A stretch of 64,000 bases of DNA from the NCBI GenBank assembly GCA_047967505.1, contig CM106538.1; one strand, written 5' to 3'. Positions within the stretch are counted from its first letter, which is position 1; each line of letters starts with the position of its first letter. Below the pieces are notes generated by a model that did not search any database, was not told where the DNA came from, and saw nothing but the letters and a program-made list of their open reading frames with translations. Below, piece by piece: positions 1 through 53,586 of the stretch. Both the position numbers and the translations under genes were made by a program. Source of the stretch: Dipteris shenzhenensis (taxonomy: Eukaryota).

Positions 1-3000
1 CTCCGTCGTCTAGAAATAAAGCCTCTGTGTAAGATCATCCTGCGGTGCTGCCGGATCATGTCATATGTACATCCTCGGGGTGGAACCATCGGTGCTCTCT
101 GGCAAGATGGGCTATCTCTGTGCTCATGGTCCTGCGCCTCGTCCTGCTCCTCATGAATAACCAGGTCTCTGACAGGGATGCGACGGTGCTCTCTGAGGAA
201 TCTCTCTCTGTATCTGGTGATCTCCCTGATGAACAACGCTAAGCAATACTGATCCTCATACTCCATAATCCGAGAGAGAGGTCCAAATCCGTGCCCAAAT
301 AAACAGTGAAATCTGCCACGGATCTCATAATATAAAGGGCATCTGCAAACAAAGTGCTCCTCAGTCTCCACCTCCCCCATAGTGCAACAAGGGCATATCC
401 TAGTCTCTCGCCTGGGTCTATGTCCGGTAGCTGTACGACGCATCCTGCCGGCCTCAACGTCTAATCTGTGGGAAGATACCCTGAGCTGCTGGCCCAAGGC
501 AATCCTGAGTGAGTGCGACATATGAACACCGATATATCCTGGGGATATGATGAAGCCATCCTCTGAAATCCTGAGAAAATGGTCACGATATGTGGCCATC
601 TTCGTAGGAAGCTCCGTGGGATGAACCCAAGTGCGAAACGTCTGTAGCTGCAACAAATCTGCCCTGATAACCTGGCTGAGCTCATGTCGAGTGAGAGGGA
701 GGCGAGGGGCATCTATGCTGTATCGAAATGGTGGCAGCCTATCCATATCCAAGCCCAGCGAGGTGAGCCATGTGGAGAGTGTGTGGTACCAACAAAAAGT
801 ATGACCTCTCTCCGCTAACATCTGCGAGGATGTCAGTGCTAGCCACGGTAATCGTGCTCTGCCTACTGCTGAGTCTCCGAGCGCCCTGATCCTGTAACTG
901 ACTGAAATGCTGCATCTAGCGCTAGGGGTGTAGCTCCGAACTCTGCGAACGTAATCTGATGCGGTACCGTGGGCTTCGCTCTGATCAATCTGGAGAACAT
1001 GATGATCTGTAACCTCTCTACTCGTCTCCAATCTGCAACATTGAGATCTCCTGCCCAAAAGGGGCTAGCATACATGACTGCAGGTCTCACCAGCGTATCG
1101 AAAAGTAAGGACTTCGTGTCGGGATGCTGAAAATGTGACTGTGCACACTGCCTCTCGAGAAGAGCCAAGGCGGCATACCCTCTACTGATCCTATCTCGTG
1201 CTCCATGCGTCATGGTGAAGACTGGACCTCTAAATGTGGCACCCAAATATGTATACTCCCTGACTAGCTCCACCTCCTGCCCATCAAATGTGAAAGAGAA
1301 CTCGCCTCTCCTATAAACCTGGTATGACGTGTTAAGGACCATGACTTTAGTCTTCCCAAGGTTTACAGACAACCCTCTGTCCTGACAAAAGCTGTGGAGT
1401 GCATGGAGATGTGCCTGTAAACCCTGCTGGGAGGAAGAAATAAGAACCACGTCATCTGCATAGAGGAGAATCGGTATCGTGGATCCTGCCAGTAAAGAAC
1501 CAGTACCACCCATCCTCTGTATGTACATCTCTAACTCATCGATATAGAGACCAAAGAGTGTCGAAGACAAAGGACACCCCTGCTTCACCCCTATCGTACT
1601 GCGTACTTCCGCCGACAGCCCCGCCCGTGTCCTGACTCTACCTGTGACTCTCTCATACAAGGCCATGATCGCCCATTGAATCTCCCCATTGAATCCCAAG
1701 TCACGAAGTCGCTGGAAGAGTCTGAAACGCGGCACAGTGTCAAATGCCTTTCTGAAGTCCACGAAGCAACAATAGAGCCGTTGCTTACGTGACTTCGCCT
1801 CCTCAATCAAAGCCCTGAGTGTGAAGATATGATCTAGAGTCGAGTGCTCTGCACGAAATCCTGCCTGCCCTCTAGCTCTCATGCCTGTCGCCTCGGCATG
1901 GTCATTTATATGTCCTTCTAGAATGGTCGCATAAATCTTGGCCATGACATGGCCAATCATAATGGTCCTGTAGTTCGACGCCTCCAAAGGATCCCCCGAC
2001 TTGTGTATGGGTACTATAGTATTTTCTAGCCAACTAGGTGGAAGACCTGTACAAATGGACTCGTTAAAAAGACGGGAGAGGACTGTAGCTAAGGCATCAA
2101 TCCCATGGATTACATACTCCGCTTGCAATCCATCATGGTCCTTAGCTCTCCCAGTCTTCAAACGATGAGCTGCTGCTCGGACACTATTGGATGAGAATAA
2201 GGCAGAGGAGGTGGGTCTAGGCACATGGGATAAGTCGATCTGTGGCTGGTCTGGAATATCATATAAAGTGGAAGTATAGGCAAGCCAAACCTGCGGGTCT
2301 GTAAGAGGAGTTTGAGATTTCAAGCGAAGGAATTTCTTCCAGAATTCCTTGGAATCACAGCTGAAAAGTAAACTTCTCAGCTCCTCCTCATTCCGGGCTA
2401 GAAATTGGCACTTTTTGCGTCACACCAAACGCTTGTAACTCTTTTTGGTCTCAATGAGGAGGGGAGACTTATCCTGTGTCTCAAGGCGAAGCTTCCTGCG
2501 GAGTTCTTTACACTCCTCATCATACCATCCATTACAAGGCACAAGACCGACTGGTGGAGGACGGGATGTGTGGCAAGTGACGGGGAAGGACTTGTGGGCT
2601 GCCGAGATGATGGAGGTATGTACAAGGTCCCACCGATCCTGTGTGGAGGGTAGGGCATCGAGAAGGTGCGGACGGAGAAGACCACTCAGGTGCTGGCTAT
2701 AAATATCATCAAACTGGTGGTCAAAATGAACCTCATAGTATGGCTGACGCTCATGATGTCTAGAAGGGGGGGCATGAGGAATCTGGGTAAGAATAAAGTG
2801 CAGACGTGCATGATCGGCTGAAGGCATAAAAGGGTCGACTGTGAGGTTATGTACAAAAGGGATTAAAGTCGGGGGACCCAAGACGTAATCAATGACGCTC
2901 GTACCACCACCCGCGAAGGGAAAACATGTGGCTGTGGATGAATGCGGCCACTGTCGAAGTCCATTATAAATGACCATGCCGTGCGATGAGAGAAGCTCCA

Positions 3001-3637
3001 ATAGGCGATGTCCCTGATCTGTCACCTCTACCCCTCTATCTGAAGATAAGCGTGGAAAACTCTCATCTGGGGCAGCTGGAACTAAGACTGGATCCTCAGC
3101 AAAGTCCAAAATCTCTGCCTGTCTGCCTGATGTCCTCGCGTTGAAGTCTCCTAAAAGGATGACCTCTCTGCGGCGTGAGTACTCCAATACATCGGCTGAC
3201 AAATCCTCAAAAGGTGACTGTCCTGGTCCATCTGAGGCATAACGAGACTGTCTCGGGGGAAAGTAGCATACTGCAATAAACAAGTCTCTCAGGGGGGGTC
3301 TCCTGATCCGTACCCAAAGATATCTGGCCCGATGGTCTCTCCTCATGACTGTGAGTATCGATCTGAGATGCTCTCTATAAAGAACTGCCACACCGCCAGA
3401 TCCTCTGACTCCTCCTGATCATCTAGTCTGCTGTCGAAAGACAGACTCCCAGGCATACCCTGTCACCTGCGGCAAGCCTCTCTCTGGGCTCTCATGGGTC
3501 TCTGTAAAGAAGACGATGTCCTGATCAAAAAAGGCCTCTCGTAAGTTGCCAGGCTGAGCTGTGAGGGAACCATTACAGTTCCAAACTGCGAAACTCAAGC
3601 TATCTGGCAGACTACGTGTCCCATAGGCCTCGTGTCG
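1..3637 (-). pseudogene. LINE ORF2 (EN-RT-CCHC), disrupted
   Basis: One frame from 3637 to about 895 with in-frame TGA at 3419-3421 and 2420-2422 (both compatible with CGA>TGA). A frameshift follows near 895, and the C-terminal region runs off the window at position 1. Confidence 0.88.
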
Positions 3638-4462
3638 TCAACTATGGGCTCCAGCCGGTCTAGATCGCATAGCTCCTATCAAAAGTCTGCCCTCTCTTAT
3701 CACGGCCCACTTGCCCTCACGACGGGCAACATCCCTCTGTGCAATGAGACGTCTATGCTCCTCCCACTGAAGAGTTGTAAGGTCCTCATCCATGTGAATC
3801 TGTGGATGGTCCCTCAATCTGGATCTCCTTCGTAATACTGTGAGACGGGCCTCAGCATCTCTGAATCTGATGATAAGTGGCTGGTGCCGTGCTGGATCCC
3901 GGCCCACTCGATATGCAGCTACTATGCCATGATCCTGAACTCCGAGTGTCCCAGATATGAAATCTGTCGCCTGATCCATGGCTGATCTCGTATCTGATCG
4001 CTCAACTCCGCGGATGCGGATGTTGAGGGCCTTCTGAGCTCGCCGCTGACTCTCGGCAATAGTCTCAGAGACTGTGGTCTGCTGGGCCTGTGGGGCTCTA
4101 CGCACAACGTCCACCCACTCTGAGGTCTTCTGTACCTCTGTCTGCAGTGTGGCCAACCTCTCCTCAACTGCTGCACTAGCTGGAGGAGCTACATGCAGCT
4201 GCTGGAGGCGATCATCGCATGCCACAACATGCTCCTGAATGCGTGCCTCCAGCTGCACTATGCGCTCAGCATGTGTCCGTAACTGGATGTCCCGATCAAT
4301 ATCTCTGGTATGAAGCTGGCGAATATGGGAGTCCTGATCACATCTATGACTCTCAACTGTCGATAGCTGATCAGTCAGTGTGTGTATCTGTGCTGTGAGA
4401 GACTGAATCGCAGCGCCCTGAAGTCTGCAAGTCTCCATGCACTGCATAACTAAATCTCTCAA
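3638..4462 (-). CDS. LINE ORF1 (coiled coil plus RRM/CTD-like nucleic-acid-binding domain), possibly 5'-truncated
   Basis: Heptad-rich N-half, then NIRIRGV, PLIIRF, IHMDEDLT and WAVIREG, typical of LINE ORF1 proteins. It lies directly upstream of the EN-RT frame. Confidence 0.8.
   Translation of the reverse strand: MRDLVMQCMETCRLQGAAIQSLTAQIHTLTDQLSTVESHRCDQDSHIRQLHTRDIDRDIQLRTHAERIVQLEARIQEHVVACDDRLQQLHVAPPASAAVEERLATLQTEVQKTSEWVDVVRRAPQAQQTTVSETIAESQRRAQKALNIRIRGVERSDTRSAMDQATDFISGTLGVQDHGIVAAYRVGRDPARHQPLIIRFRDAEARLTVLRRRSRLRDHPQIHMDEDLTTLQWEEHRRLIAQRDVARREGKWAVIREGRLLIGAMRSRPAGAHS

Positions 4463-4466: not shown

Positions 4467-4508
<42 letters not shown>
4467..4508. repeat. (AG)n microsatellite at the LINE 5' junction
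   Basis: Perfect AG dinucleotide run, read directly. Confidence 0.98.
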
Positions 4509-11008: not shown

Positions 11009-11744
11009 TGTTGAGAATAGGCATCTCCAGGAGTGGCTGGCCGACCAGCTCCCACGCAGCAAGGGGGGCCAGAGGGGGTAGGCTGGCCGACCAGCCAGGC
11101 TTTGGCCGACCAGCTGGTCGGCCCAGTTGGCTGACCGACCAGGCTGGTCGGTCTAGGCAATCTGGCCGACTCCCCCATGGCCTGCCCTATAAAAGGGACT
11201 CCTTCCCTTCACTTCCTTTACCACTCCTTGCAGCTCCTCAAGGCTCCAGCACACAGCCTGCTCCTGACCATCCCCTCAGAGCCCCCTCTCAGCTGCTCAG
11301 TTGGCTGCCCACACTCCCGCAGCAGATCTTGCCTCTTCAGGGCTCTTGCCTCCTCGCTCCAGGCCTCTACAGTTCCCTTGTTCCAAGGTTCCTGCCTCTT
11401 CACCCAGGCTCCTTCAGCCTCCTCTTCTCTAGGCTCTTGCCTCCTCAGTTCAGGCTCCTCTAGCCTCTTCACTCCAGGCCCCTGCCTCTTCGTTTCAGGC
11501 TTCTCCTGCCTCCGTGCTCTCAGGCTTCAGCTTTCTTGTGCCCCCCCTTTCCTTTGCTTCAGTTCAGCCTCTCCTGCAGCTCCTGTTTTCTTATCTTATT
11601 CAAGATATCTTGTATTTCAGTTGCTGCCCTGGTTTAAGGGCTGATTTACAGCAGATCAATTGTGGCACATTTTGTTATCTCTAGTGTTCTCTGTATGGCT
11701 CTATAATTTCAGTTTGTTTGCATCTTCCGCTGCCATTTTTAATA
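11009..11744 (+). repeat. 5' LTR of the young copia
   Basis: Starts TGTTG, ends TTAATA, and is followed by the PBS. Confidence 0.95.
11040..11194 (+). promoter_or_regulatory. LTR promoter: cluster of seven RCCGAC (DRE/CRT-like) cores plus TATA box
   Basis: RCCGAC at 11040, 11086, 11105, 11117 (rev), 11134, 11147 (rev) and 11165; TATAAAA at 11188-11194. Repeated in the 3' LTR. Function is inferred. Confidence 0.6.
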
Positions 11745-11975: not shown

Positions 11976-14900
11976 ATGGCTGATGAAACAAAGGATTCTA
12001 CTCCGGATCGTCGCGTATCCCCTATGTCCAGTTTCTTTCAAGAGTCTGACAAGCCTGTACGTATTCCCACTCTTCCTACATTTCCAGATGCTCGGCAGTT
12101 AGATGGGACCAACTATTCTCTTTGGAAAATTCAGATGGCGTCTGTATTGGAATCTTATGATCTTGCTGAGTTTGTTGATCCCGGGATCCCTCGTCCGTCA
12201 CCTAAGGAGGAGCCACATGCTTCTCTTATCTGGGATAAATTGAATGCTCGTGTACGCTCGTTCATCTTTCTCAATTGTCAACCAGGGGTTCTCAATCATA
12301 TCAAGCATCTTACTTCTGCACGTGCTATTTGGGAATTTCTTGATGGCATGTATCTTCGCGTCACACCCATGAAACGTATTTCCTTGGAAGTTCAGCTTCG
12401 TCGCCTCGATCCGACTACTTCCCCTTCCATACGGGACCACATCAACAAAATGCAGAGCATGCATCAGGACATCCTCCATGCAGGCAAGGCTATCTCCTCC
12501 GAAGATATGGCTATTACTCTCTTATCTCATGTTATTACTGACAGTCGATATGCAGCATTCTATTCTTCTCTTATTACCTCTGGCCGCCTCAGCACCATCA
12601 CTTGGGAGGAACTTGTCCCCATGATGATGGATCAGGAGGAACAGTTCACTAAAACCTCTGATGGTTCTTCTGAGGCTCTTGTGGCTCACCGTCCCAAATC
12701 ACGATCCAAGAATGCCCCGTCCTCTGCCAATAACTCATCTCCTTCAGATCCCTCCAGTGACCGTCCTGCTCCCAAAGGTAATTGCAATCACTGTGGCACT
12801 CCTGGCCATTATTGGCGCAATTGTCCCTACCGCAAACACAAACGAGCTGACGCACCCCTGGCCGCTGCGGCTGATGCTTCCCTTACCCCTACTCCTGCAT
12901 TTGTTCACCTTGAGCTCTTGAATTCGGTACCCCTTCCTGCAGCAGAGTCATTGGCTCTCCATGGCTCTGATGCTCGTGAATGGATTGTTGATAGTGGGGC
13001 CTCTCGGCATATGACCCCCTCCTCCTCACTGCTCAAGGATCTCACTCCTCATCCTGGTCGTGTCTGCATCGGTGATAAGCACTCTATTCCTGTTCATTCA
13101 GAGGGCTCTCTTGATATTATTCCTGATGGCAAAGGGGGTAAACACTCTTCTCGTGTTCTTTATGTTCCGTCTCTCGGCTTTCATCTCCTTTCGGTTCATC
13201 AGATTTGTCAAAACAATATGAAAGTTGAGTTTGAAGCGGCCTCTGTCACCATCCGCGATTGTGCCACCGGACAGCCGGTTTGGACCGACCATTCTACTAA
13301 TGGTATCTACAAGCTTGTCGCCCTTCCCTCCCTTACAGGAACCTCTCTTGGCGACCTTTGGCATTATCGGTTTGGTCATCTACACATTGATGCTCTCCAT
13401 CGTGCTTTCCGTGATCAGCTTGTCCTCGGCCTCCCTAACGTCGGCACTCGCCAAGGTCTCTGTCCCTCTTGCATATTGGGCAAACAACATCGCGAGCCGT
13501 TCGTCCATCATGCCTCTCGCCGTGCCACTGTTCCGCTTGGTCTTGTTCACCTCGACTTATGTAGCCCTATGCAGATTATGTCACTTGGGGGAGCCTCGTA
13601 CTACATGCTCCTTGTTGATGATTTCAGTCGCTATTCTTGGATCTATTTTCTTTCCCACAAGGATCTGGCTTTCAGTCGTTTCCAGACCTGGCTAGCCATG
13701 GTGGAAAAAGAATCCAATCACTCCCTCAAAATTCTTCGTGCTGATAAAGGTGGTGAATTCACCTCTCTCGAGTTTGATCGGTTCTTGAGTAGTCATGGTG
13801 TCAAACGGGAATTTGCCAACACAGGTACCCCTTCTGATAATGGCGTGGTTGAACGTAAACATCGTACCGGTGTTGAAATGGCTCGGACCATGCTCACTCA
13901 CAGTCAACTCCCTCAGTCTCTCTGGGCCGAGGCCATGATGACCGCCATCCATACTCTTAACCGCTCTCCGACATCAGCAGTCCCAGGCATGACCCCTTAT
14001 CAGGCTTACTATGGATCTAAGCCCGATGTTTCCCATTTTCGGGTATTTGGCTGTGATGCTTATGTTCATATTCCTAAATCTGATCGTGGAAAGCTTGATC
14101 CTAAGTCCCACAAGCTCTTGTTCGTAGGCTACAACTCCGTCTCCACTGGCTATCGCCTCTATGATCCTCGCCGCCGCATTATCTCCGTGAGCAGGGATGT
14201 CCTTTTCGACGAGCAGGTCCTTCCGCCATCCTCCGACTCTCCTCCTATTCTTGGAGATCCGTCCGATGCCCCGGAGCCCTCTCTCCCTCCACCTGCCTCG
14301 TCCCCCGTTACATCACCTCCTATTCTCTCTCCTCCGCCTCCTTCTCCAGCTCCACCCTCGTCTGCTCCTCCTTTGGAACCCCGCTCGGTACGTGTTCCGC
14401 GATGGCTCATTGATACTCTCCGCTCCTCCGGTCTTGAGGATCCCTACTCCGAACCACACCCTGATGATGGGCCTCGTCGCTCTCGTCGCCATCTCCCACC
14501 GTCCTCTTCTGATCCCCTTCATGTCAATTACGCCCTTATGTCTCGCATCCTCGCCACTCGTGAGCCCACTACCGTTCCTCAGGCTCTGGCCCAGCCTCAT
14601 TGGAAACAGGCTATGGAAGCGGAAATGCATGCTCTTCTTCGGAACCACACCTGGGACCTTGTCCCTCGTCCCTCACATCGTTCCGTCATTGGTGTCCGGT
14701 GGATTTTCAAAACAAAATACACCTCTGATGGTTCTGTCGACAAGGTTAAAGCTCGGCTGGTGGCTAAAGGCTATGCCCAACGACCCGGCATCGACTATGG
14801 GGAGACCTTTGCACCTACCGCCCGGATGAGCACCATCCGAACGATCCTCGCTCTTGCAGCCCACCATCAGTGGCCCATCTTTCAAATGGACGTCAAATCT

Positions 14901-16121
14901 GCATTTTTGAATGGTGATCTTCATGAAGAGGTATATGTGGATCAGCCACCTGGCTTCATTAATTCTCGTTCTCCTTTCATGGTCTGTCGCCTTCGCAAGG
15001 CCCTCTACGGTCTCAAGCAAGCTCCTCGGGCCTGGAATCAGCGTATTGATACCCTCTTCTGCCGCCAAGGACTTCTTCGCTCTCTGGCTGATCCCAATCT
15101 TTATCTTTTTCATGAAGGACAGCTTCATACCTTCATCATTCTTTATGTGGATGATTTAATCCTCACCGGGAGTCATACCAATCATATCCTTGCCATTAAA
15201 GTTGCTCTTCAAACTGAATTTGAGATGACAGACATGGGCCTTCTCCATTTTTTCTTGGGTCTTGAGATTTGGCGGACTAAGAGGGGGTATTTTGTCTCTC
15301 AGCAACGCTATGTTCACGAGCTCCTCGAAACTTTCCACATGGCTGACTGTCGGCCCATCACTTCTCCCATGGATCCCAACTCTAAACTCTCTGCTTCTGG
15401 GTCCACTGCTTATCCTGATGCCTCCCTCTACCGCCAGCTTGTTGGATCTCTTCTCTGGCTACTTAACACTCGACTGGATCTCGGCTTCTCTGTCGGCACC
15501 CTCAGTACCTTCATGCAAACCCCTTCACTTTCTCATTGGCAAGCTGCTCGACGTCTCCTCCGCTATCTTCAGGGGACCTCTACTTTCGGGCTCTTATATG
15601 CTGCCGGTGGATCCTCTCCTTCCCCACTCACTCTCCGAGGTTGGAGTGACTCCGATTGGGCTGGCGACCCCGATTCTCGCCGCTCTACCACGGGCTATGT
15701 TTTCTCCTTTGGCTCTGCGGCTATCTCCTGGTCCAGTAAACGCCAACCCACGGTCGCCCTATCTTCCACCGAGGCTGAGTATCGGGCTATGTGTAGTGCC
15801 ACCTGTGAGGCTGTGTGGCTTCGGCGCCTTCTTCTCGATTGTGGTTTTCAGCAACCCACTTCTACCACACTTTTTTGTGACAATCAAAGCTGTATTGCCC
15901 TTGCTCGCAATCCGGTTTTCCATGCTCGGACAAAACACATTGAAATTCAGTACCACTACACGCGAGAGAAGGTTCTTGACGGTACCATTGTGCTCCTATT
16001 CAGCACCACTTCCGACAACGTCGCCGACATATTTACCAAACCTGTTTCTCCTCCCCTTCTCCAACGTCATACCAGCTCTCTGGGTCTTGTGCCACACCCT
16101 AGAGCTGAGAGGGGGTGTTGA
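11976..16121 (+). CDS. Copia gag-pol polyprotein, 1381 aa
   Basis: Gag with CNHCGTPGHYWRNC knuckle, protease WIVDSGAS, integrase (WHYRFGH, CPSC, DDE), RT (ARLVAKGY, YVDD) and RNase H (SDSDWAG, TKHIEIQYHY), in copia order. Confidence 0.97.
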   Translation: MADETKDSTPDRRVSPMSSFFQESDKPVRIPTLPTFPDARQLDGTNYSLWKIQMASVLESYDLAEFVDPGIPRPSPKEEPHASLIWDKLNARVRSFIFLNCQPGVLNHIKHLTSARAIWEFLDGMYLRVTPMKRISLEVQLRRLDPTTSPSIRDHINKMQSMHQDILHAGKAISSEDMAITLLSHVITDSRYAAFYSSLITSGRLSTITWEELVPMMMDQEEQFTKTSDGSSEALVAHRPKSRSKNAPSSANNSSPSDPSSDRPAPKGNCNHCGTPGHYWRNCPYRKHKRADAPLAAAADASLTPTPAFVHLELLNSVPLPAAESLALHGSDAREWIVDSGASRHMTPSSSLLKDLTPHPGRVCIGDKHSIPVHSEGSLDIIPDGKGGKHSSRVLYVPSLGFHLLSVHQICQNNMKVEFEAASVTIRDCATGQPVWTDHSTNGIYKLVALPSLTGTSLGDLWHYRFGHLHIDALHRAFRDQLVLGLPNVGTRQGLCPSCILGKQHREPFVHHASRRATVPLGLVHLDLCSPMQIMSLGGASYYMLLVDDFSRYSWIYFLSHKDLAFSRFQTWLAMVEKESNHSLKILRADKGGEFTSLEFDRFLSSHGVKREFANTGTPSDNGVVERKHRTGVEMARTMLTHSQLPQSLWAEAMMTAIHTLNRSPTSAVPGMTPYQAYYGSKPDVSHFRVFGCDAYVHIPKSDRGKLDPKSHKLLFVGYNSVSTGYRLYDPRRRIISVSRDVLFDEQVLPPSSDSPPILGDPSDAPEPSLPPPASSPVTSPPILSPPPPSPAPPSSAPPLEPRSVRVPRWLIDTLRSSGLEDPYSEPHPDDGPRRSRRHLPPSSSDPLHVNYALMSRILATREPTTVPQALAQPHWKQAMEAEMHALLRNHTWDLVPRPSHRSVIGVRWIFKTKYTSDGSVDKVKARLVAKGYAQRPGIDYGETFAPTARMSTIRTILALAAHHQWPIFQMDVKSAFLNGDLHEEVYVDQPPGFINSRSPFMVCRLRKALYGLKQAPRAWNQRIDTLFCRQGLLRSLADPNLYLFHEGQLHTFIILYVDDLILTGSHTNHILAIKVALQTEFEMTDMGLLHFFLGLEIWRTKRGYFVSQQRYVHELLETFHMADCRPITSPMDPNSKLSASGSTAYPDASLYRQLVGSLLWLLNTRLDLGFSVGTLSTFMQTPSLSHWQAARRLLRYLQGTSTFGLLYAAGGSSPSPLTLRGWSDSDWAGDPDSRRSTTGYVFSFGSAAISWSSKRQPTVALSSTEAEYRAMCSATCEAVWLRRLLLDCGFQQPTSTTLFCDNQSCIALARNPVFHARTKHIEIQYHYTREKVLDGTIVLLFSTTSDNVADIFTKPVSPPLLQRHTSSLGLVPHPRAERGC

Positions 16122-16851
16122 GAATAGGCATCTCCAGGAGTGGCTGGCCGACCAGCTCCCACGCAGCAAGGGGGGCCAGAGGGGGTAGGCTGGCCGACCA
16201 GCCAGGCTTTGGCCGACCAACTGGTCGGCCCAGTTGGCTGACCGACCAGGCTGGTCGGTCTAGGCAATCTGGCCGACTCCCCCCTGGCCTGCCCTATAAA
16301 AGGGACTCCTTCCCTTCACTTCCTTTACCACTCCTTGCAGCTCCTCAAGGCTCCAGCACACAGCCTGCTCCTGACCATCCCCTCAGAGCCCCCTCTCAGC
16401 TGCTCAGTTGGCTGCCCACACTCCCGCAGCAGATCTTGCCTCTTCAGGGCTCTTGCCTCCTCGCTCCAGGCCTCTACAGTTCCCTTGTTCCAAGGTTCCT
16501 GCCTCTTCACCCAGGCTCCTTCAGCCTCCTCTTCTCTAGGCTCTTGCCTCCTCAGTTCAGGCTCCTCTAGCCTCTTCACTCCAGGCCCCTGCCTCTTCGT
16601 TTCAGGCTTCTCCTGCCTCCGTGCTCTCAGGCTTCAGCTTTCTTGTGCCCCCCCTTTCCTCTCCTTCAGTTCAGCCTCTCTTGCAGCTCCTGTTTTCTTA
16701 TCTTATTCAAGATATCTTGTATTTCAGTTGCTGCCCTGGTTTAAGGGCTGATTTACAGCAGATCAATTGTGGCACATTTTGTTATCTCTAGTGTTCTCTG
16801 TATGGCTCTATAATTTCAGTTTGTTTGCATCTTCCGCTGCCATTTTTAATA
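16116..16851 (+). repeat. 3' LTR of the young copia
   Basis: Preceded by the PPT and followed by TSD TGAAC. Confidence 0.95.
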
Positions 16852-19110
16852 TGAACCTGCCCAGAGGAGGTTGCGTACCAACTATCGGAGCTGCCCAATG
16901 CATCCTTTGTGAAAGCACCAGCAGGAGGCTATATACCAGGCCGTGGCAAGAGGGACTTAGTTTGCCACTAAGGCGCGACCTGTGAGGGAGAGTTTGGCCG
17001 AGCTCCAATAGAGAAGCTTGCGCCAAAAACCCTCAAGGACCGGGGCAATCTACTGCTCTGCTGTGATGTCAACACCCACGTGGCATCTGAGGTATCTCGC
17101 TGTCTGGCCACGTGGTATCCATCTGAAACCAAAGTCACTCCCCCACTCACAGATCTCCTCTGTCTCCTCAAAGCCCATGAAGAAGCCTATGGATTTCGTC
17201 CAGTTGATCCGTGCCCCCGAGGCCTCACAATAGATAGCCACGGTGCCTCTGACTCTCTCTAGACTCGCTGTGGTGCCCTCAACATACAAGGCTGTGTCAT
17301 CTGCAAACTCCAAGTCAAGGAGCTCCTCCTCCTGTCTGATTGTGAGCCTCAACCCTGTGAGACCTGCCACCTGTGATCTCAAATGGTAGTTCAGAGCCTT
17401 CGCTACAAATAAGAAGAGAAAGGGAGCTAGTGGACATCCCTGGCGGCCGAGTGAGAGAGAGAAAAGGCCTCGCCTGCGTGTCCTCTGATAAGCATCTGAC
17501 TACAGCTCCCTGCGTATAGCGCTGAAACTCCTCTGACCCATCTGTCTGAGAAACCCAATCTCCTCATAGTGCCCTCTAGGAAAGACCAATCCACCCTGTC
17601 ATAGGCCTTCTCAAAGTCCAAGAGAAGGACGGCGGCCAACGACTGTGCCTCCTCCCTAGACCAATCCACTGCCTCCCAGAACGTGAAGATGTTGTCCAAG
17701 ATGCTACGCTCATGGACAAACCCAGTCTGTGTGTCGTGGATAATGTCGGTAAGATGAGGCCGTAACCGCAAACTCAAGACCTTGGCGAGGACCTTGTATG
17801 CAGTATCAAGCAGAGTGATCGACCTCCACTGTCGGATATCTGACCTATCTCCCCCTTTCGTGATCAAACAGATCCACCCCCTGCTCAAGGACTAAGGGAG
17901 AAGGCCTATGTCAAAAATCTCCTAGCAAGCTAAACGGAAAGGGGTGGAGATAATCTCCCAGAACTTCCGGAAGAAGGCCGGAGTCAAGTCATCATCCCCC
18001 GGGCACTTCTGGGTCGGGAGCCTTAAGGGCTTCCCAGAGCTCCTCATCTTTGAAAGGCTCTTCAAGTCTGCTACATAAGTCCTGCGAGACTACTATCAGA
18101 ACGTGATCCCAAACTAGCTCTCAGGCCACAAGACCAGCTGGGGTCATTCTCTCTGTCTGAAAAAGCTGGTTGTAAAAGCCGGTGGTCATGTCAAGAATCT
18201 CCTGCGGGTCAATGTGCATGATACCCTGCGAGTCCCGGAGACGCTGTAGCTGTGTGCCTGTCGATCGGGGCCCAGTGGTCTGAAAGAACTCCTTCGTAAT
18301 CCTGCCCCCCTGCTGTACCCATCGGGCCTGGGAGGAGTGGTAGGAGAACACAGCCTGTCACAGCTCCGTGTCCTGAAGCTCGAGACGAGCGCTCTCAAAT
18401 CCATCACTAAGCCACTGAGAAGCTGGGTCCTGCTCCTAAGCCTCTCAATGGAGGCAAGGTCTCTCCTCAAAGCCCATTCGCGCTCCTGAAGGGTCCTCCT
18501 CCTAAGGGCGTGAGCCTGCAGCTCCACACTGCTCCATTGGATCGCATCGATCACCCACGCAGCCCAACCCTCACTCGGTGCCATCTCTGATTGCTCCCAG
18601 ATCTCTACCATAACCTGTTGCATCTCCTCGTCCTGCAAGAGGTCCTCTGGAATGCGGACCCCTTTCTGGGAGAGACCTTGACAGGGCTGATCCAAGTGAA
18701 GTACCACTGGAGAGTGGTCGAACATCGTGGTACCTGCCATAATCCCGGTAGATCCGCCTCTGTGTAATGCCTAGTCCCCAACATAGAAGCAGTCTAATCT
18801 CTCGAGCAATCCGTCGTGTCTCCTCTATCCAAAGGAGAAGAGAAGGCAACCAGGAGTCCTCCTGAACTCTGGCTCTCTCCACGGGTCTCTACCACTGATC
18901 ATGAAAATGAAATGCTCCCACGTACTACGCTCTGCTGCTGGCATCTCAGAGAACGAGGCGCCGCCCTGCTTGTCTTCCCCAAACTCCAGGTTGTTGAAGT
19001 CCCCTTCAACAATCCAGGAGTCAACATCCGGAAGACACTCTGACAGCCTTCTCCAAAAGGTCGGGCGGTGATGTCTACACGCTGGGGCATACATGTTTAG
19101 GATCCCAAAT
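16852..19110 (-). mobile_element. L1 LINE ORF2, EN and RT part, decayed
   Basis: YAP, GDFN and FDHSPV (EN); WRSITLLDTAYKVLAK, DFEKAYDRVDW and FADD (RT). Several frameshifts and stops. Confidence 0.9.
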
Positions 19111-19129
19111 AAAAATACATGTTACACCA

Positions 19130-19675
19130 TATATAATAATATTTTAATGTCTACTAATCATGGATTAATGATTTCTCTTCTCGTGACACTCCCTCCTGCT
19201 TGAACGGGCAGAAGTACATATGTACACCTATAGCAGTGCATAAACGGAGGGCTTTAGCCTCACTTCGCACCCGATCACACCAGCTGCAAATAGAAACAGG
19301 GGGATGGAAAAAGATGCCAAGGGAGAGTAGAATATGCCAACTATGTGATCAAGGTATGGTTGAAACAGAAGAACACATGGTAATGATATGCCCTCACTAT
19401 GCACACATTAGGGAAGAGTTCAATCACCTCCTTGAGGGACATAACAAACTGGCTGATTTGCTGCATAAAGGGTCACCTTCAGCTTTAGGAACATTTGTGT
19501 ATAAGCTCTTCAAGCATAGGAATCCACCTGAATCCTAGAAGGTGGTTTCTCTTTCCACCCTCCCATCTTCGGGAGGAGCTTTCATGTACTTGTGATATTG
19601 TATTGCCCAGGTCCCATAGGCCGGTTTTGGTCTTCAGAGGACGATAATATATTCTTCTTCTTCTTCTTCTTCTTG
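19130..19675 (+). mobile_element. 5'-truncated LINE 3' end (CCHC region, terminal hairpin, (TTC)n tail)
   Basis: LRTRSHQLQIETG...RICQLC...ETEEHMVMICP is homologous to the C-terminus of the LINE at 1-4466. Hairpin motif at 19611-19649. Confidence 0.85.
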
Positions 19676-20137
19676 TCCCTTTCGCTTACGTACGCTTTTC
19701 TCTTTTACTTCTGCATTTGCATCTCCTCTTCACAATCTACAAATAATCTTCTATTGGTAGTATGCGATCTTTTCATAATCAAAACTTAAATCTCATCTTC
19801 AAGTTCTGGTTTCTCTTGATGCTGAATATTCAAAATGCAAAAGTACCACTGCACTGCCTCTTCACTATCTCTTCATGCTCAAATCCTCTTCAGAATACCA
19901 AGCTGCTGAAATCTCTTTATAGTAACTTGCTCAATAAGATGAAACATATTCTCAACAAACTGGTCAGTATTAAAACGATTCTCTCACCCAAATATTTCAT
20001 TAAACTAGGTGGACCTTGACTATAGATGATTTTGCGACGAAGAGCTTCTTAATCTATAGAAACTATAGATCATCAATCTCTTTTTCCAACTCTTCTATTT
20101 CAGCCCTATTCATCCTATAAGATGCTCTACATGGAGG

Positions 20138-20290
20138 AGAAAGAAAGAAAGAAAGAAAGAAAGCCTATTAACGTCCACGAGAGACCAAGAGGTCTATGGG
20201 ACAACATGAAAGCCGTCTAGTACATCAGCTTAGGGAGGGCGCAGGGCAACTCCCAAGGAGTGCAAAAGCAGCTCCTTTATTGTCTGTCCA
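20138..20290 (-). mobile_element. Short 3'-end copy related to the ORF1-only element at 33000-34179
   Basis: About 120 bp align by eye with 34020-34140 (ttttgcactccttgg...ccctccctaa...gtactag...gtcccatagacc...gttaata), followed by a (TTTC)n tail. Confidence 0.8.
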
Positions 20291-31820: not shown

Positions 31821-32999
31821 CCAAAAATGCAAGGCAAAAGCACCAATCTAACAATGCAAATGAGAGGAAAGCAACCTCGCAAAATCAAGTGGCAAAATTC
31901 TGCTCAAGCTTCAAAGCTTATCACTGCAAAAGATTCTCTTGTCCCAAGGTGTACCTGCTGCAAAAATTTCCTAAAAGGCAACACGAGACCTTCCAAGGCA
32001 ACACAGGGCCTTTCCAAATGCGAATGAAGTAGAAATTGGAAAGAACGAATGCAACAAAGGCTTACCCAATGATGTAGCCCGTAAATACAGCAGGAAAAGG
32101 CTCTGAATGTGAGTAGAAGAATTCACCCTTGAAGGAGAGGTGAAAATGAGAGCAAATGGCAATGAGAAATGCCAAGAGAGGGCTGGAAATGAGAATTACA
32201 GCAACAGAAAGTGCTCCTAGGAGGAGGAGAGCACTTGGAAATGAGAGAAGAATGATCCAATGGAGGGGTACTCATAGCCCGAGGCATGATAAGCCAAAAG
32301 AGAAGGAATGGCCTCAAGAAGAGGCCTCCGGATTGATTCAACAACCTCCAAATGTCTTCAACAACCGGCACGCAGCACTAGACAGGTCCAAAATGCTGAA
32401 AAAAGCTTCACATTGGTTGGCACGAACCCCGAGACAGACCGTATAGCATTAAGTGCACCGAAACAGGTCCATACTGCAGTAAACGCGCTGCACAATGGCT
32501 TTAAATGCACCATACACCACCCAAAACAGTCCATACAGGTCAAGACAGCAGCAAACAGGCCTGCCCAGCGCTGTCCGTACTGCAATTAATGCCATCTCCT
32601 AACCGTACAGGCTGTACGAAATCCATAGTCACATGTGTGAGGCGGTACAGGCCGTATAGCAGCTGCAGCAGCAATAAATGCACCAATTTTTGTAGTAGGT
32701 GCTCCAAAATGCAGATTTCCTGCGCAAAAATGCAGACTTCCCGCGACGGAAATGCTTGGAGTAGCTTCGTGTGTTCACACACGTGAAGAAAACCTTGAGA
32801 AATGAGCAAACCAGCAGTAGAATAGGCTGTCAAACAGCTCCCAACAGTTCCAAGAGCACTCAAGGTGGTTGGAAATGGCTAGAGGGTAAACCTAAACTAT
32901 AAGATGGAAACACTTAGCCTACTGTTCTCCAGTGGGTACTAGTGAACAAGAACTGACTACTGACTTGACCTAAGGCTGAGAGACTGACCTACGTAGCTT

Positions 33000-34140
33000 G
33001 TGCCTGACTGTCCCTGGACAAGGGCTCACAAAGGGGTCACAGCATATGACAAAATCTCCTATCTGGGAACTATAATGCACTTGTCGATGTAGCCAGCGTG
33101 TCACCTTGCACCCAAGTGGAGGGGTGCATGTGACATGATCTATATAAGACTGCTGCTCCTCCTGATCCCCGTACTCCACCTGTCTCCCTCATCTCCTCCC
33201 TATAGGTTGACTCCCAAGTGTGTCCCCCTCAACTCCCTCAACTCCTTCAACATCCATCAAAACTCAGTACTCTATAGTTGCAGTTATCTGCAGCAGGCAA
33301 TGACAGAGCTACGATTGGAACTGGCAGAAGTAAAGGCTCGACTTCACATTCTGGAAGGGCCTCGTAAGCAGGCAGTAATTGATGAGGCTGTAAAATCTTG
33401 TAAGGATTCCCCCCTTACCCTGCAGCTAGTCTCTACAGTCAAAGATCTTGTTCACATTGAAGTACAAACTGCTAAGAAGGAAATGATTGTGGAAGTGGAC
33501 ACCAAAGCATGTAAGTCTGATATTCAAGCAGAGATTAAAGAACACGAAGCTAGATGTGATAATGCGCTGAAGATTAGAATAGGGGGACTCCCAGAAGATT
33601 GATACAAAGAGGAGGATACATATAGTGAGATATTGACAAAGATCAAAGCAAGCTTGCCCAACATTGAATGGGTGGATGATGATGAGCAAGATGATGACGA
33701 CTCTAGGCCAGCTTCTATTTTGCACTATAAAGGTCATGCAATCCTTACACTGAAGTCAAAAGATATGCAAATCAAGCTTCTTCGACAATCTTACAAGTTG
33801 AAGGGCACCAAAGTATGGATAGCAGAGGAGCTTACACAAGCTCAACTTAAGATTAAGGCAACTGAATTAGCTAAAGTCAGGGCTGCCAGAAAGGATGGAA
33901 AATGGACAGTTTACCGTGAAGGCGTAGCACTAATCAGAGAGTTCAAATCAAAACCAAAAGACTCTCAATCTTAAACTGATGTATGGCTGTTTACTCTTCC
34001 ATACTATCATGTAGGTACTCTAAATAATGTGGGTTGCTTTTTGCACTCCTTGGAAGCTGCCATGTGCCCTCCCTAAAGCAAATGTACTAGAGGGTTCCTT
34101 GCTGTCCCATAGACCTTTTGGTCTCCAGTGGATGTTAATA

Positions 34141-34179
<39 letters not shown>
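33000..34179 (+). mobile_element. ORF1-only non-autonomous LINE derivative (half-LINE-like)
   Basis: ORF1-like frame 33300-33974 with one in-frame TGA at 33600 (IRIGGL, KVWIAEELT, GKWTVYREG). No EN/RT follows. A ~165-nt 3' UTR ends in the shared hairpin and a (TC)n tail. TATATAA lies near 33141. The 5' boundary is approximate. Confidence 0.72.
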
Positions 34180-34185
<6 letters not shown>

Positions 34186-34203
34186 GAGGTCTCCCAAAGA
34201 CGT

Positions 34204-34265
<62 letters not shown>

Positions 34266-35039
34266 CTCTCCTCTCCACCACGCTAGCATCTGCTCAGCCG
34301 CTCAACCTCCAGTTAGCCCATCCAGTTAGCCTCCGCTCAGCCTCGCCAAACTACACTTTGCCCCTCCGTTCGCCTCGCTCAGCCTCTATCCGTTAGCCGC
34401 TCATCCACCTCTTCGTTCAGCCTGCTTAGCCCCCGCATTTAGCCCGTTCAAGTCGTTGTCGTCAAGCAAGCCGCAGGAGAGTAAACCCCAAGTAACCCCG
34501 GGCTGGGCTGAACCCTTTGGCCCAGCTTGGGGGTTAGTCTTAGGAAAGGGGCTCCCTACACAGGCCACCAAATCAAGTTCCCTAAAACCAAACTATTTGC
34601 TACAACCCCAGCCAACAAGAAGCCCTTCTACGCTTCCATAACTTCAACACCATCCCCTATGCCTTGACCTACCATAGATTCCAGGGTAAATTTGATCCAC
34701 GTGAGCAGATCTATTTTCTACAGCAAGAACTCAGCGATGCAAGACTTCGCATTGCCTCTGGAGAAGATAGTTGCAGAAATGAAAAACAAGGGCGCCATTG
34801 CGATAGTAGGAGAAGTTGGTGATGGCTCCCATGTTGGTGAGAAGAGAATGTTCAACTCCTCAATAGGTTTTGGTGACTGGGGCAGAGTCATTTCTTGTTC
34901 CTGTAGCTCTTTATTGATGATTACAGCCAATACATTGGCCTGATGAACCATCAAGTTTTTTTGTGAAGAAGATGAAGTGCTGGATCTAGTCTTGCTTTAG
35001 CTTCCTACTTAGTAAAACAAATGTGCGGAGTGGAAGGGA

Positions 35040-35764
35040 ACAATTCTTGTAATTCAAGAAGTTCTACGGCAATGCAATACAGCAGCCCCCGCACCAGAGC
35101 TTGTGACCAAGGTACAAGAATTGGTTACGACTCAGCTCAAGTCTATTAAAGAGGAATTTACAGCAACTATGAATACCAAGATGAACAAGTGTGATGTCTA
35201 TGAGGAGGTGAAAGAGCAAGAAACCAAAGCTCGAAATAACCGGATTATACGCATAGGGGTCTAACCGAGACTACACTCTAGAATGTGGAAGTATGAAAAT
35301 AAAGACTGAATATCTCAAGAAAACAATTCCCCGGATTGAAAGGGATCCAGAAGAGATAGATTTTGCCCACCAAAAGGGGGAACAAGCAAGAGTAATCTTT
35401 CAAGACAAGACACCAAGGAACAAAGTCCTCAGACAAACCAACAAGCTGAGAGGTACTAGAATATGGGATTCAGAGGAGCTCACGCCGACTCAAAATCGAC
35501 AAAAGTAAAAGAAGCTCTGTTTCTTGAGATGGTATAGCACTAATGAAAGACTTCAATCCTAGACCCAAAGATTCTCAGTCTTAAAATGATGTAATGACGG
35601 CCACTTTACAATAGTATTAGACTTTAGTAGTTTGCTACATAATTCGAGCTGAGATGCCTTACGCACTCTTCAACTCTCTCTAGCACTCAGAGATGTAAGT
35701 ATTTCCCTTTTTGGAATGTGTAATTTGTCTCATAGTCCCATGAGAAATTCTGCCGACGTTAGTA

Positions 35765-35797
<33 letters not shown>

Positions 35798-35810
35798 CTC
35801 TCTCTCTCTA
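35040..35810 (+). mobile_element. Second, more decayed ORF1-only element
   Basis: LRQTNKLRGTRIWDSEELT and the same C-terminus PKDSQS* as the first copy. Short 3' UTR, degenerate gtcccat...gacgttag motif, and a (TTTC)n/(TC)n tail. Confidence 0.68.
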
Positions 35811-35928: not shown

Positions 35929-36749
35929 CTTCGCAATCATCCATGCAAGACATAATTTGCTTCAATAAGCCGCACAAACAGCAACATGACATTTTTCACA
36001 TCAGCTTTCTCAAACAAAAGACACTAATTGTTCTTTATTTCCAGCACACCATCTTTTTCCCTTCCATTATTTAAATTTAAACTACTATACATCTCTACAT
36101 TATGTGCAATCTTCCATATTCAGAATTATAGTGAGTGAAAAGACCAAGAGAGGGTTGGGGATGGAAAGAGAGAAAGATCTTCATAATAACACAATTTCAA
36201 GACAAGAAAATACTAAGCAAGCAAGCTAATCCTTCTTGTCATTGGTAAACCCAAGTACAGCCTGTAGTAAGGTTTCAAAAAAATAAAAACCTTTTGGGCA
36301 AAACAAGTAAGAAAGTTGCAAACGAGTGCGCCCGTGTGTGTGTGTGTGTGTGTGTGTGGTTCATATATATATATATATATATATAAATCCTTCAACTAAG
36401 GGTAGTTTTTTTTCCTTCTATTAAGGAAATGATTCCTACAAGTGAGGAAACACTTACTTGTTATTGAAACCTTCAAATAGCTCTTGGTATACTTCCACAT
36501 GAGAAAATTCCAACTATTGAGAGAGTTTCCACCTTGAAATAGGCAAGAATAGCAAGGAGGGTCAGCACCTCCAAAATAACAATATAAGTATAGAGGGAAA
36601 TGGATTTCTCATGACTCCCAACCCCTCCTTCATAATCCCCTACAATTTATAGCTCTCCCTTTCTGGGATAGCTTTTTTTGTAATATAATGAGTCAAAGAT
36701 TCCACAAAAAATGTGTGTGTGTGTGTGTGAGAGAGAAAGAAATAAAGGA

Positions 36750-38575
36750 AGAGGTATTAACGTCTTTCGGAGGCCTCACGCACAATCACAAAAGTAACCC
36801 ATACAAGCCAGTGTCCATAGTTGCACGAAACGCCGTTTCTTGCGGCCAAAAACGCCAACCGTTTCTGAAAATGGCGAAACAGCATTTCTAGCTGCCTTTT
36901 TTTTTGAAATATTTTACATTTTTTTTTTTAATATACTTTTTCTAGGGCTTTTGTAAAACACCCTCCAACCTCTCCATTCTCCTCTACCCTCTCCTACTCT
37001 AGCCTCTCCACTCCCCTACCCTCTCCATTCTCTTACTCTAGCCTCTCCACTCTCTTACGCTCTCCTACTCTAGCCTCTCCACTCTCCTACCCTAGCCTCT
37101 CCATCCTCGTGCTCCTCTCCTCATTCTCTTGCTCTCCCTCCTCTTTCTCCCCATACTCTCCCTCATCCTCCCAAGTCCCCATAGTCTCCCCCCCTCCTCT
37201 GCATACACTTCGTCCTCCACCTCCTCCTCCTGTCCATCCTCCTCCTTGAGTCCTCCTCCTACTACTCCTCATACTCTCCCTCCCCCTTCTCCTCATAAAT
37301 TTATTTTCACATAACTATACCGTATTGTCGTTTCTCATTTCGCCGTTTTGGATCGGCTCGAAACTTCGTTTTTGGCGTTTCTGCCACTTTCGTTTCGGCA
37401 TGCTACTATGCCACTGTCGGCTGAAGCAAAGGGCTTGCTAAGACCTTCGTTGAGTACTGAGCTAAAACAAATACAACAAAAACTAGTACGCAAACTCAAG
37501 GTCAAAATACAAAGCCCGGTTCTACGGTGGCTCTCCTATGAGCTGCAAAAATATATCATCTCTGTATCTGTTGGGTCGTCTCTCTAGGCGTTGGGGGACG
37601 TGGTCTCCGTGATCTCTATATTCGACGGCCCATGTCGATATTGGTCCCTTTGATCGGGTGATCCCCTCCGAATATGGCTGTGATGGGCTGACCCTCCATC
37701 GTGCGTGCCCTAGTCCGTCTTTGCATCTCTGGCTACGTCTCTCCACAACGTCGTCTCATCCTGCCCCACTCAGCCCTTATGTCATCTATCTCCTCCTCCT
37801 CAACTCCGCTCTGTCCAAGGGTAGACTCGAAAGTGTTCAAAATCTGTAGCATTTCCTTGGGCTCAATCTAGCTCGGTCCCACATGCCACTGTCTCCTCCT
37901 GCTCTCTAATGCGGCTCATCAAGGCCTATCTATGTCGTTGCATCTCCATCAAATAGAGACTAATGCAAACCTCATGCTGGAAGTGAATCAGCCATGAGAG
38001 AGGCCCAAACCATGTCCCTCCTAAAATAAGCAATAGTATCGTCCTCATATCTCATCGTAGACAGGGCAAGTACATAGGAAGTGCTCACCTCCTCCAAGGT
38101 GCATTGCCTACAGATCCATTGCTCTCTGGGTGTACCTGTGGCTCTCCCTACCTCAATCCTCAATCGATGGGACAAGACCCACATCTGTCCGATGGCGATC
38201 CTCAATGCGTGAGACTCGTCTATCCTTCAAGTACCGAGGTGTCTGATACCCACTCCATCCATCGATACTCTAAGGAATGATCACGGTAGAATCGGATCTT
38301 GGTGGGGAACTCCTGCCCTCCCCAAAGTCCGCGACGTGTGGATCTGAAGTAGGTCCAACCGTATGACACAGTTGATCTCATCCCGTGGAATCAGGTGGTC
38401 AAGAGCATCTAAGCTGTACTGAAAGGGGGAAGACTGTCCACCCGGATGTCCTAGCTGCGAAACCATTTGGATTTGCATGCGTACCAAGCCATGCTCATTC
38501 CCTCTCAGCTAGGCATATAGACGACTCTAGTGCCAATCTCAACAATCTCCTGTCGGAAGTGCAACGGATCTTGAC
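36750..38575 (-). mobile_element. 5'-truncated, decayed LINE of the same type as 1-4466
   Basis: RIAIGQ..VLSHRLRIEVGR...ICRQC C-terminal region, and a partial terminal motif at 36755-36780. Confidence 0.78.
36816..37410. mobile_element. MITE with 8-bp TSD (hAT-like), inserted in a LINE 3' UTR
   Basis: Termini CATAGTTGCACGAAAC / GTTTCGGCATGCTACTATG are imperfect TIRs. Flanks are CCAGTGTC (36808-36815) and CCACTGTC (37411-37418). Removing it restores similarity to 38695-38760. Confidence 0.8.
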
Positions 38576-38590: not shown

Positions 38591-38624
<34 letters not shown>

Positions 38625-39360
38625 TAGATGTATTAACGTCTGCAAGAGGCCTCGCGGGCCTATAAGACAAAGTGCAAAACTAAAAGGTAGCTTATACAAG
38701 CCACTGAGGACTGAAGTAAAGGGTTCACTAAGACCCTTACTGAAAACTGAAAGCTAAAGTGCTAAACTAGTGGACAAAATACTTAGCAAAATAACATAAG
38801 AGTGTCAGGTGCTCACGGCTAGCATTTCTAGTACATGCTCAAGTTCCACATATCCAGGTACCCTAGTGGCTCTCTGATGAGATGTGAGAAGCTCTCGTAC
38901 TGTGTATGTCGAGTTGTCTTGCGACGTGGGGAAGGGCGTGGTCTCCTCGATCTCTCGATCCGGTGGGCTACATCAAGGGTGATGCCTCGTCTTCGGCGGT
39001 CGCCTCTGAGAAGGGCTGAGATCTCGATCGTGCGTGCTCCAGGCTCTCTCCATGTCGCACGTGGAGCGTGTCCCTCGTCTGGCAGCATCATTGGACACTC
39101 CTACTGCTAATTATGATGCTCTCATCTCATCAAGCTCCTCTCCCTCAGCCACACCAACAGCTGACTCAGATGGATAGAAGTCTGTAACAAAAGTATGTGA
39201 TCTGTCAACGATGACCTGTGGCATCAGTCCATGCTGCTCTCTGGTCTGTTGCATCAATGTGTCTCTCTGTTGACGCATCTCAATCAAGTAGAGCCCAACA
39301 TAGACCTGATCGTGAAAATGTATCAGCCGTGTATGAGTGGACCAAAGCAATGCCCCTCCT
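38591..39360 (-). mobile_element. 5'-truncated LINE 3' end bounded by (TC)n on both sides
   Basis: Terminal hairpin at 38631-38668, 3' UTR similar to 37420-37470, and AG runs at 38591-38622 and 39367-39390. Confidence 0.72.
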
Positions 39361-53411: not shown

Positions 53412-53474
<63 letters not shown>

Positions 53475-53510
53475 TAAAGTCTTCGAAAGACTATTGGGCC
53501 TATGAGATTG
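53412..53510 (-). mobile_element. LINE-family terminal hairpin with long (TC)n tail
   Basis: The minus strand reads atctcat aggcc caata gtctt tcga agac tttaata, followed by the GA run at 53412-53470. Confidence 0.6.
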
Positions 53511-53586
53511 TAACAAGCTTGATACAACAAAAGCTGAAAGGGTGGAAATTATAAGTTAGCATGACACCCATGATACATAGTATAGG

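Follow-up and report, generated by a model that had tools for sequence, protein, structure and literature searches.

How does an element that encodes the ORF1 protein (ORF1p) of a long interspersed nuclear element (LINE), and neither endonuclease (EN) nor reverse transcriptase (RT), come to stand twice in a row in a plant chromosome? The question is raised by a 64,000-nt stretch of contig CM106538.1 from Dipteris shenzhenensis (the window, by which we always mean the whole stretch), a eukaryotic, transposon-rich sequence in which two plus-strand elements, copy 1 and copy 2, each consist of an ORF1-like coding part, a short 3' untranslated region (UTR) and a microsatellite tail. The best reading, and one that we consider probable, is that they belong to an ORF1-only, LINE-dependent family analogous to HAL1 ('half-L1'), which has been described in mammals as a non-autonomous LINE derivative that encodes ORF1p only (PMC5753468). 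An original prediction, made from the sequence alone, had likewise proposed a protein-coding non-autonomous family living on a LINE; of that proposal the ORF1p-only coding, a 3' end of the local LINE type and the recurrence of the layout have stood, and a promoter at a TATATAA sequence has not.

An ORF1-only layout that recurs in diverged copies

Copy 1 has a single frame (33300-33974) that translates into a 224-residue protein with one in-frame TGA (33600-33602), and its UTR closes with a terminal structure at 34104-34142, GTCC..AGACC-tttt-GGTCT..GGAT, followed by GTTAATAGA. Contigs from public sequencing runs break from the window sequence at 33283/33284 in both directions, homologues of the protein carry about 50 extra N-terminal residues and align the ATG at 33300 within their coiled coil, and the consensus of the contig loose ends before 33284 continues ORF1 in frame; copy 1 is therefore 5'-truncated inside ORF1, and the ATG at 33300 is internal. 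Copy 2 starts about 1.1 kb downstream on the same strand, possibly with its 5' limit near 34965, and has decayed by frameshifts, stops and a deletion: three ORF1-like pieces (35049-35267, 35314-35529 and 35501-35581) each lie in another frame, in-frame stops follow ...IRIGV and ...NRQK, and the C-terminal domain (CTD) is shortened. A third copy (Table 1), which has a 5'-truncated UTR of the copy 1 type, is 82.6% identical to 34039-34169 over 132 nt and could derive either from an ORF1-only element or from a LINE that shares the UTR.

Much of this anatomy had been foreseen. Two plus-strand elements with ORF1-like coding only had been claimed, and searches with an ORF1 hidden Markov model (HMM) and, by tblastn, with the ORF2 of a LINE in the window found no EN or RT between ORF1 stop and tail in copies 1 and 2; the ORF1 HMM also found no further ORF1 within the window. 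The short UTR with a terminal hairpin (degenerate in copy 2) and a microsatellite tail was described correctly, the two UTRs measuring 168 and 182 nt with the inner stem lost in copy 2, and the truncated third UTR copy that had been placed near 20138-20290 was recovered at 20137-20267 on the minus strand. Two other claims had to be given up. The coding parts had been presented as open reading frames (ORFs), and neither is intact, copy 1 having its in-frame TGA and copy 2 its frameshifts and stops. Transcription had been suggested to start near the TATATAA at about 33141, and we rejected this site as the element's promoter: it sits inside a minus-strand EN fragment of another LINE (33139-33225; 66% identity over 29 residues, E 4e-10), the contigs break at 33283/33284, and copy 1 lacks the ORF1 N-terminus. 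We also rejected the ideas that the inverted EN fragment belongs to the element and that twin priming produced it, since contigs depart on both sides of 33283/33284 and nothing EN-like stands upstream of copy 2.

The layout is not a one-off. It recurs in diverged copies, namely copy 1, copy 2 and L001. The last is a contig of 1,076 bp from a different assembly; it has an intact 240-aa ORF1 (77-796), no EN or RT, and a UTR of about 225 nt that ends with GTCCCATGGGCCGACGTTAATACA, containing a GACGTTAATA-type motif, and then (CTTT)n. Copy 1 and L001 share 49% amino acid identity over 133 aligned codons and 73.8% DNA identity over 149 nt, while the proteins of copies 1 and 2 are 33-43% identical over two main pieces and 56% over the last 18 codons, and their DNA is 81% identical over 59 nt spanning the stop codon into the UTR. 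The distance from stop to tail is 168-225 nt in all three. Many further diverged copies are seen in three public runs (three studies, two organism labels), from which 166, 98 and 32 contigs aligned to the stretch, numerous of them on 33262-34150; those of run X1 divide into 8, 47, 50 and 61 at identities of at least 99%, 95-99%, 90-95% and below 90%. Copy 2 was sparsely covered, and contig cover was absent at 32500-32880, 34151-34404 and 35929-36300. Details of the contigs are those of 24 of the 310 aligned pieces and 18 of the 144 loose ends. Two of the pieces listed (records 13 and 24) span the ORF1 stop and match 31 nt or more to either side of it, two others (records 8 and 14) have 24 nt of ORF and then 127-143 nt of UTR, and contigs 81-95% identical to copy 1 keep its ORF1/UTR junction. 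The earlier argument that strongly diverged ORFs with the same architecture speak against a one-off deletion is thus upheld by L001 and by the contigs that are colinear across the junction.

These data also bear on the idea that the copies are chance debris, in which unrelated decayed LINE 5' fragments came to lie beside LINE 3' fragments through nested insertion or deletion and no ORF1-only transposition took place. The window is certainly crowded, with 8 LINE 3' ends in 64 kb, a 28-nt LINE end within the tail of copy 1 and an inverted EN fragment adjoining it. But L001, from another assembly and with an intact ORF, has the same succession of ORF1 stop, UTR and tail, and the contigs of three runs are colinear across the junction, so that this reading is already contradicted and we regard it as very improbable.

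The 28-nt LINE end inside the tail of copy 1 suggests that existing tails attract further insertions, and insertion into an existing tail may explain the tandem arrangement of copies 1 and 2. Insertion specific for (TC)n is known for LINEs of the Tx1 group. We considered microsatellite-targeted insertion for the present elements and rejected it: the sequence 5' of the two truncated copies (33284 and about 20267) contains no microsatellite, and the repeats are therefore tails.

The encoded protein and the shared 3' end

Judged by its sequence, the protein of these half-elements is a LINE ORF1p, a relationship that had been suspected at the outset. Copy 1 aligns with ORF1 of the LINE at 1-4447 (ORF1 at 3638-4447, minus strand) at 25% identity over 217 aa (BLASTP, E 1e-9), in blocks that include KIRIGG/NIRIRG, AEELT/DEDLT and GKW.V.REG, and the IRIxG and xExLT motifs that had been taken as parallel between the two do align there. 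The PKDSQS* end, which had been thought common to all, is shared by copies 1 and 2 and is not that of the LINE ORF1, which ends ...PAGAHS. A profile search of 1.84 billion protein representatives returned 505 relatives at E<=1e-3 and 54 at E<=1e-10. Of these relatives 50 were scanned: fusion to EN or RT domains was seen in 9, a single one has a PHD finger at its N-terminus, and one is a PARP14-like protein with multiple RNA recognition motifs (RRMs). EN-RT follows directly behind the homologue in 20 of the 22 loci fetched from metagenome contigs, and the LINE at 1-4447(-) likewise has its ORF1 directly upstream of an EN-RT ORF2. A word-index protein search gave one near-length match (P0001, 49% identity) and no longer protein, and a feature-based protein search gave eukaryotic clusters only (0.90-0.91).

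An AlphaFold (AF2) model of the L001 ORF, with a mean predicted local distance difference test score (pLDDT) of 90.7, has helices at 26-76 and 81-107 followed by two alpha/beta domains, and weak coiled-coil-type Pfam matches occur in relatives. Because the top nine Foldseek matches of this model are chains of the human L1 ORF1p trimer (2yko, 2ykp and 2ykq; E 1.4e-5 to 8.4e-4, 184-191 columns), with RRM proteins ranking after them, the protein is predicted to be a type II-like ORF1p, with coiled coil, RRM and CTD in the fold of human L1 ORF1p. Pfam Transposase_22 (PF02994) had no match in copy 1, the L001 ORF or the 50 relatives (none at E<=0.01 across the latter), copy 1 matched no Pfam family at E<=1, and the L001 ORF at E<=0.1 had matches at chance level only. 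A PDB sequence search with the window LINE ORF1 (3638-4447, minus strand), and not with a half-element ORF, gave one unrelated match (E 0.37). Type II ORF1 is reported from the L1, CR1, L2 and R1 clades (PMC4120745), and plant ORF1p is described as type I variants in a survey of L1 elements (PMC5203782); the model documents a type II (L1-ORF1p-like) protein in a plant LINE group. In that group (window 1-4447(-) and L001:77-796) the human L1 ORF1p fold is found without a Pfam Transposase_22 match.

The second tie to LINEs is the 3' end. The box GACGTTAATA, allowing at most one mismatch, occurs at 8 sites in the 64-kb window where 1.39 are expected (0 of 100 shuffles reached 8), and a microsatellite follows every one of the eight. 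Over its last 45 nt, copy 1 shares 80% identity with the LINE end at 19611-19655, upstream of which lies an ORF2 C-terminus. Since the LINE at 1-4447(-) has its 3' end beyond the window edge, this plus-strand end (19200-19674) serves for the comparison; its UTR closes with ...CCCATAGGCCggttttGGTCTtcagagGACGATAATA, then (TTC)n. When the eight ends are aligned, they are compatible with two stems (outer stem GUCC/GGAC, inner stem AGACC/GGUCU); 84.8% of cells pair under the two-helix model versus 36-47% when the partner is slid, and two pairs vary on both sides among the 8 sequences (AU/GC/GU/UA and CG/UA). The tails of ends of the GACGTTAATA type are (CT)n, (TTC)n, (CTTT)n and (ATC)n. A full LINE from the metagenome of an AT-rich organism (L017:5839-9700 and L020) ends in ...AGGCC..GGTCT..AACGTTAATA(ATC)n, which shows that conservation of the 3' box extends far outside the genome of the window.

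These two ties suggest how an ORF1-only family might move. The element would comprise a 5' part, an ORF1 for an RNA-binding protein of predicted L1 ORF1p fold, and a short 3' UTR that closes with the two stems and the GACGTTAATA box before a microsatellite tail. Its RNA would be translated, and the resulting ORF1p would coat the same RNA in cis. The 3' structure and tail would then be recognised in trans by the ORF2 protein (ORF2p; EN-RT) of an autonomous LINE with the same group of 3' end, and ORF2p would nick the target and reverse-transcribe from the tail, often leaving a 5'-truncated copy.

ORF2 of the LINE at 1-4447(-) contains stops and one frameshift; its best match is a protein with 78% identity, and its named relatives come from Adiantum nelumboides (5 rows, 34-62% identity) and Taxus chinensis (2 rows, 41-42%), which agrees with the plant host that had been presumed and points to a fern or another vascular plant without flowers. 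Against solved proteins its RT is roughly equidistant from R2 (E 9e-27) and human L1 ORF2p (E 1.4e-19), its EN had no L1 match among solved proteins, and a Pfam search gave no zf-RVT and no other LINE clade marker. In one study of fern genome content the annotated classes include L1, L1-Tx1, L2, RTE-X, R1 and Jockey (Table 2 of PMC6890710). As RT, EN and Pfam do not assign a LINE clade, we do not file the elements as HAL1 itself. The 'non-L1' part of the original prediction is not established either, the predicted ORF1p fold being of the L1 type.

A lineage of its own or recurrent by-products

If ORF1-only elements are mobilised in trans, they might also persist. We tentatively raise the possibility that half-LINEs are an old, species-rich lineage in ferns, and possibly in other plants, which keeps its own ORF1p under purifying selection through synonymous saturation and borrows ORF2p from LINEs with the same structured 3' end; plants would then have a two-component LINE system of long standing. 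Intact relatives exist for both window-copy lineages, such as P0004 (196 aa, ending KPKDSQS). The remaining evidence is best told together with the points that weigh against an ORF1-only family. Among the three ORF1-only copies the proportion of synonymous differences (pS) is 0.72-0.80, which is saturated (0.42 for the last 18 codons of copy 2), and that of nonsynonymous differences (pN) is 0.26-0.44 in a protein-guided alignment, which biases pN downward; moreover, a pN below pS could date from a time when these ORF1s were still part of autonomous LINEs, with separate deletions following later. In a 51-row ORF1 tree, a branch with a Shimodaira-Hasegawa-like approximate likelihood ratio (SH-aLRT) of 99 sets the 2 ORF1-only rows and 18 proteins of unknown genomic context apart from the remaining rows, which include all 15 with known ORF2 context; the rows were chosen by hand (51 of 120 candidates, with 8 EN/RT-fused rows added deliberately), so the tree is consistent with an old ORF1-only lineage and is no proof of one. 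The 3' end has its own weak points: the alignment of UTR and LINE is limited to the last 45 nt, one LINE 3' end being available in the window, the covariation score was reached by 19 of 500 shuffles, the hairpin is short, with single-sequence folding z-scores of 0 to -1.8 that are not significant, and in L001 the inner stem is without its 3' arm. Copies 1 and 2 are both dead, so nothing in the window shows present activity. Finally, at least three run contigs depart 8-19 nt past the ORF1 stop, with their loose ends following 33982 and 33993, and could be ORF2-bearing relatives; the contigs listed allow no proportion to be given of family members that have ORF2 between ORF1 and UTR.

That last point leads to the main rival, which is that ORF1-only copies are recurrent by-products of full-length LINE RNAs, made by internal deletion, RT template switching or splicing out of ORF2 and then retrotransposed in trans, with no self-sustaining lineage. 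The three contigs, found among the loose ends listed, that diverge just past the stop would fit such an origin. HAL1, too, arose independently several times in mammals (PMC5753468), and the deep divergence of the three ORF1-only copies would on this account mirror the divergence of LINE lineages. Between the conserved stretch after the stop and the next common UTR block, L001 is longer than copy 1 by about 85 nt, so that the limits of the deletion need not be identical. Behind the L001 stop, the translation LLWNqCRESPL can be set against ILSWNCRGFPW of LINEs, but this possible remnant did not hold up against shuffled sequence, its profile score of 2.6 bits being exceeded by 13 of 1,800 shuffled frames; the same profile detected no remnant of an ORF2 start behind the ORF1 stop of copies 1 and 2. 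It counts against separate origins that copies 1 and 2 are 81% identical over the 59 nt through the stop into the UTR and that contigs 81-95% identical to copy 1 share its junction. The ORF1-only side of the tree contains no ORF1 that is known to be associated with ORF2, and the search for longer proteins gave no fused relative, which is a weak argument. On balance we think the by-product account rather unlikely.

Intact ORFs of the clade in public protein sets, together with pN below pS, might instead call to mind a host gene domesticated from ORF1, comparable to L1TD1 in mammals, of which the window copies would be pseudogenes. Such a gene would hardly be expected to have a LINE 3' motif and microsatellite tail directly behind its ORF, and the 5' truncation, the many diverged copies in the runs and the fact that no intron or host-gene context was seen speak against it as well; we take domestication to be extremely improbable.

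Within an ORF1-only family dependent on LINEs, the closest parallel remains HAL1, with which the present elements have in common that ORF1p alone is encoded and that this protein has, by prediction, the fold of coiled coil, RRM and CTD. HAL1 goes back to mammalian L1 and has L1-type, A-rich 3' ends, whereas the present elements occur in a fern-like plant, and their 3' end combines a conserved structure of two stems with the GACGTTAATA box and a microsatellite tail that varies; their ORF1p has no Pfam Transposase_22 match, and the RT of the associated LINEs is about as far from human L1 as from R2. HeT-A and other ORF1-only telomeric retrotransposons of Drosophila (Jockey group) encode an ORF1/Gag-like protein only and obtain RT in trans. 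They resemble the present elements in being non-LTR (long terminal repeat) elements with an ORF1-type protein only, but elements of the HeT-A type are targeted to telomeres and have zinc knuckles in ORF1, while the present copies are dispersed and interstitial, with a type II-like ORF1p and microsatellite tails. Among plants, TR-GAG elements are derivatives of LTR retrotransposons that contain gag only; they too have kept a structural gene for a nucleic-acid-binding protein and lost the enzymes, but they belong to the LTR class, with an unrelated protein and another mode of replication. As regards the 3' end, LINEs of the stringent type (L2/CR1-like) have a 3' stem-loop and a short-repeat tail in common with the short interspersed nuclear elements (SINEs) that are their partners (PMC5135761, PMC5786205). 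The conserved stem-loop and short-repeat tail on both the autonomous and the dependent element are what we see here, but the present dependant is protein-coding and not a SINE headed by a small RNA.

In the literature searched, which covered few subscription journals and did not include Repbase, we found no description of an ORF1-only LINE derivative from plants. If the elements are an independent lineage, then combining one's own ORF1p with a borrowed ORF2p would be a recurrent strategy across kingdoms and LINE types, and keeping one's own ORF1p would be compatible with 'stringent' recognition of a 3' structure. In large fern genomes, annotation can mistake ORF1-only elements of this kind for LINE fragments or host genes.

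Neighbouring elements in the window

The positions of the elements discussed, and of their neighbours, are collected in Table 1. Upstream of the three further box ends (36729-36814, 38591-38690 and 53414-53531) no ORF1- or ORF2-like sequence was detectable, which leaves two readings of them, LINE copies with heavy truncation or dependants of the SINE type.

Table 1. Half-elements, LINE sequences and related 3' ends in the 64,000-nt window
Feature	Position	Strand	Remarks
Autonomous-type LINE	1-4447	-	ORF1 3638-4447; ORF2 (EN, RT, Cys/His motif) directly behind
LINE 3' end, candidate partner type	19200-19674	+	ORF2 C-terminus with Cys/His motif, 110-nt UTR, terminal stem-loop, GACGATAATA, (TTC)n
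Third copy, copy-1-type UTR	20137-20267	-	5' truncation; (CTTT)n tail
EN-domain fragment of another LINE	33139-33225	-	5' flank of copy 1, outside the element
Copy 1, ORF1-like coding part	33284-33974	+	truncated 5' inside ORF1; TGA 33600-33602; stop TAA 33972-33974
Copy 1, 3' UTR (168 nt)	33975-34142	+	directly behind ORF1 stop
Copy 1, (CT)n tail	34143-34179	+	
LINE 3' end of about 28 nt with own (CT)n	34180-34262	+	LINE part 34180-34207, ...GACGTTAAT; extreme 5' truncation; inside copy 1 tail; like the 38631/36755 subtype
Copy 2, decayed ORF1-like part	35049-35584	+	three frames; at least 2 in-frame stops; ends PKDSQS*
Copy 2, 3' UTR (182 nt)	35585-35766	+	degenerate terminal motif GACGTTAGTA at 35755-35764; inner stem lost
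Copy 2, (TCTT)n(CT)n tail	35767-35809	+	
GAC(G/T)TTAATA-box end	36729-36814	-	microsatellite tail
GAC(G/T)TTAATA-box end	38591-38690	-	microsatellite tail
GAC(G/T)TTAATA-box end	53414-53531	-	microsatellite tail

Further LINE remains were seen besides these. ORF2 fragments at 17191-17900(-) and 38003-38501(-) are 28-42% identical to ORF2 of the LINE at 1-4447 and, together with 19200-19523, show that there are at least three diverged LINE lineages in the window. On the minus strand, 19 nt separate a (CT)21 run at 4467-4508 from the ORF1 ATG of the full LINE downstream; the run has no LINE 3' motif before it and could be a target-site microsatellite or a part of the 5' UTR. A search of Rfam gave no match within the window. 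Outside the LINEs, an intact 1,381-aa ORF at 11976-16121(+) encodes a polyprotein of the Ty1/copia type and is flanked by 45-bp tandem repeats that are identical at 11386-11513 and 16493-16620. These repeats are probably located in the two LTRs of a Ty1/copia-type element, which, given their identity, would be a young insertion.

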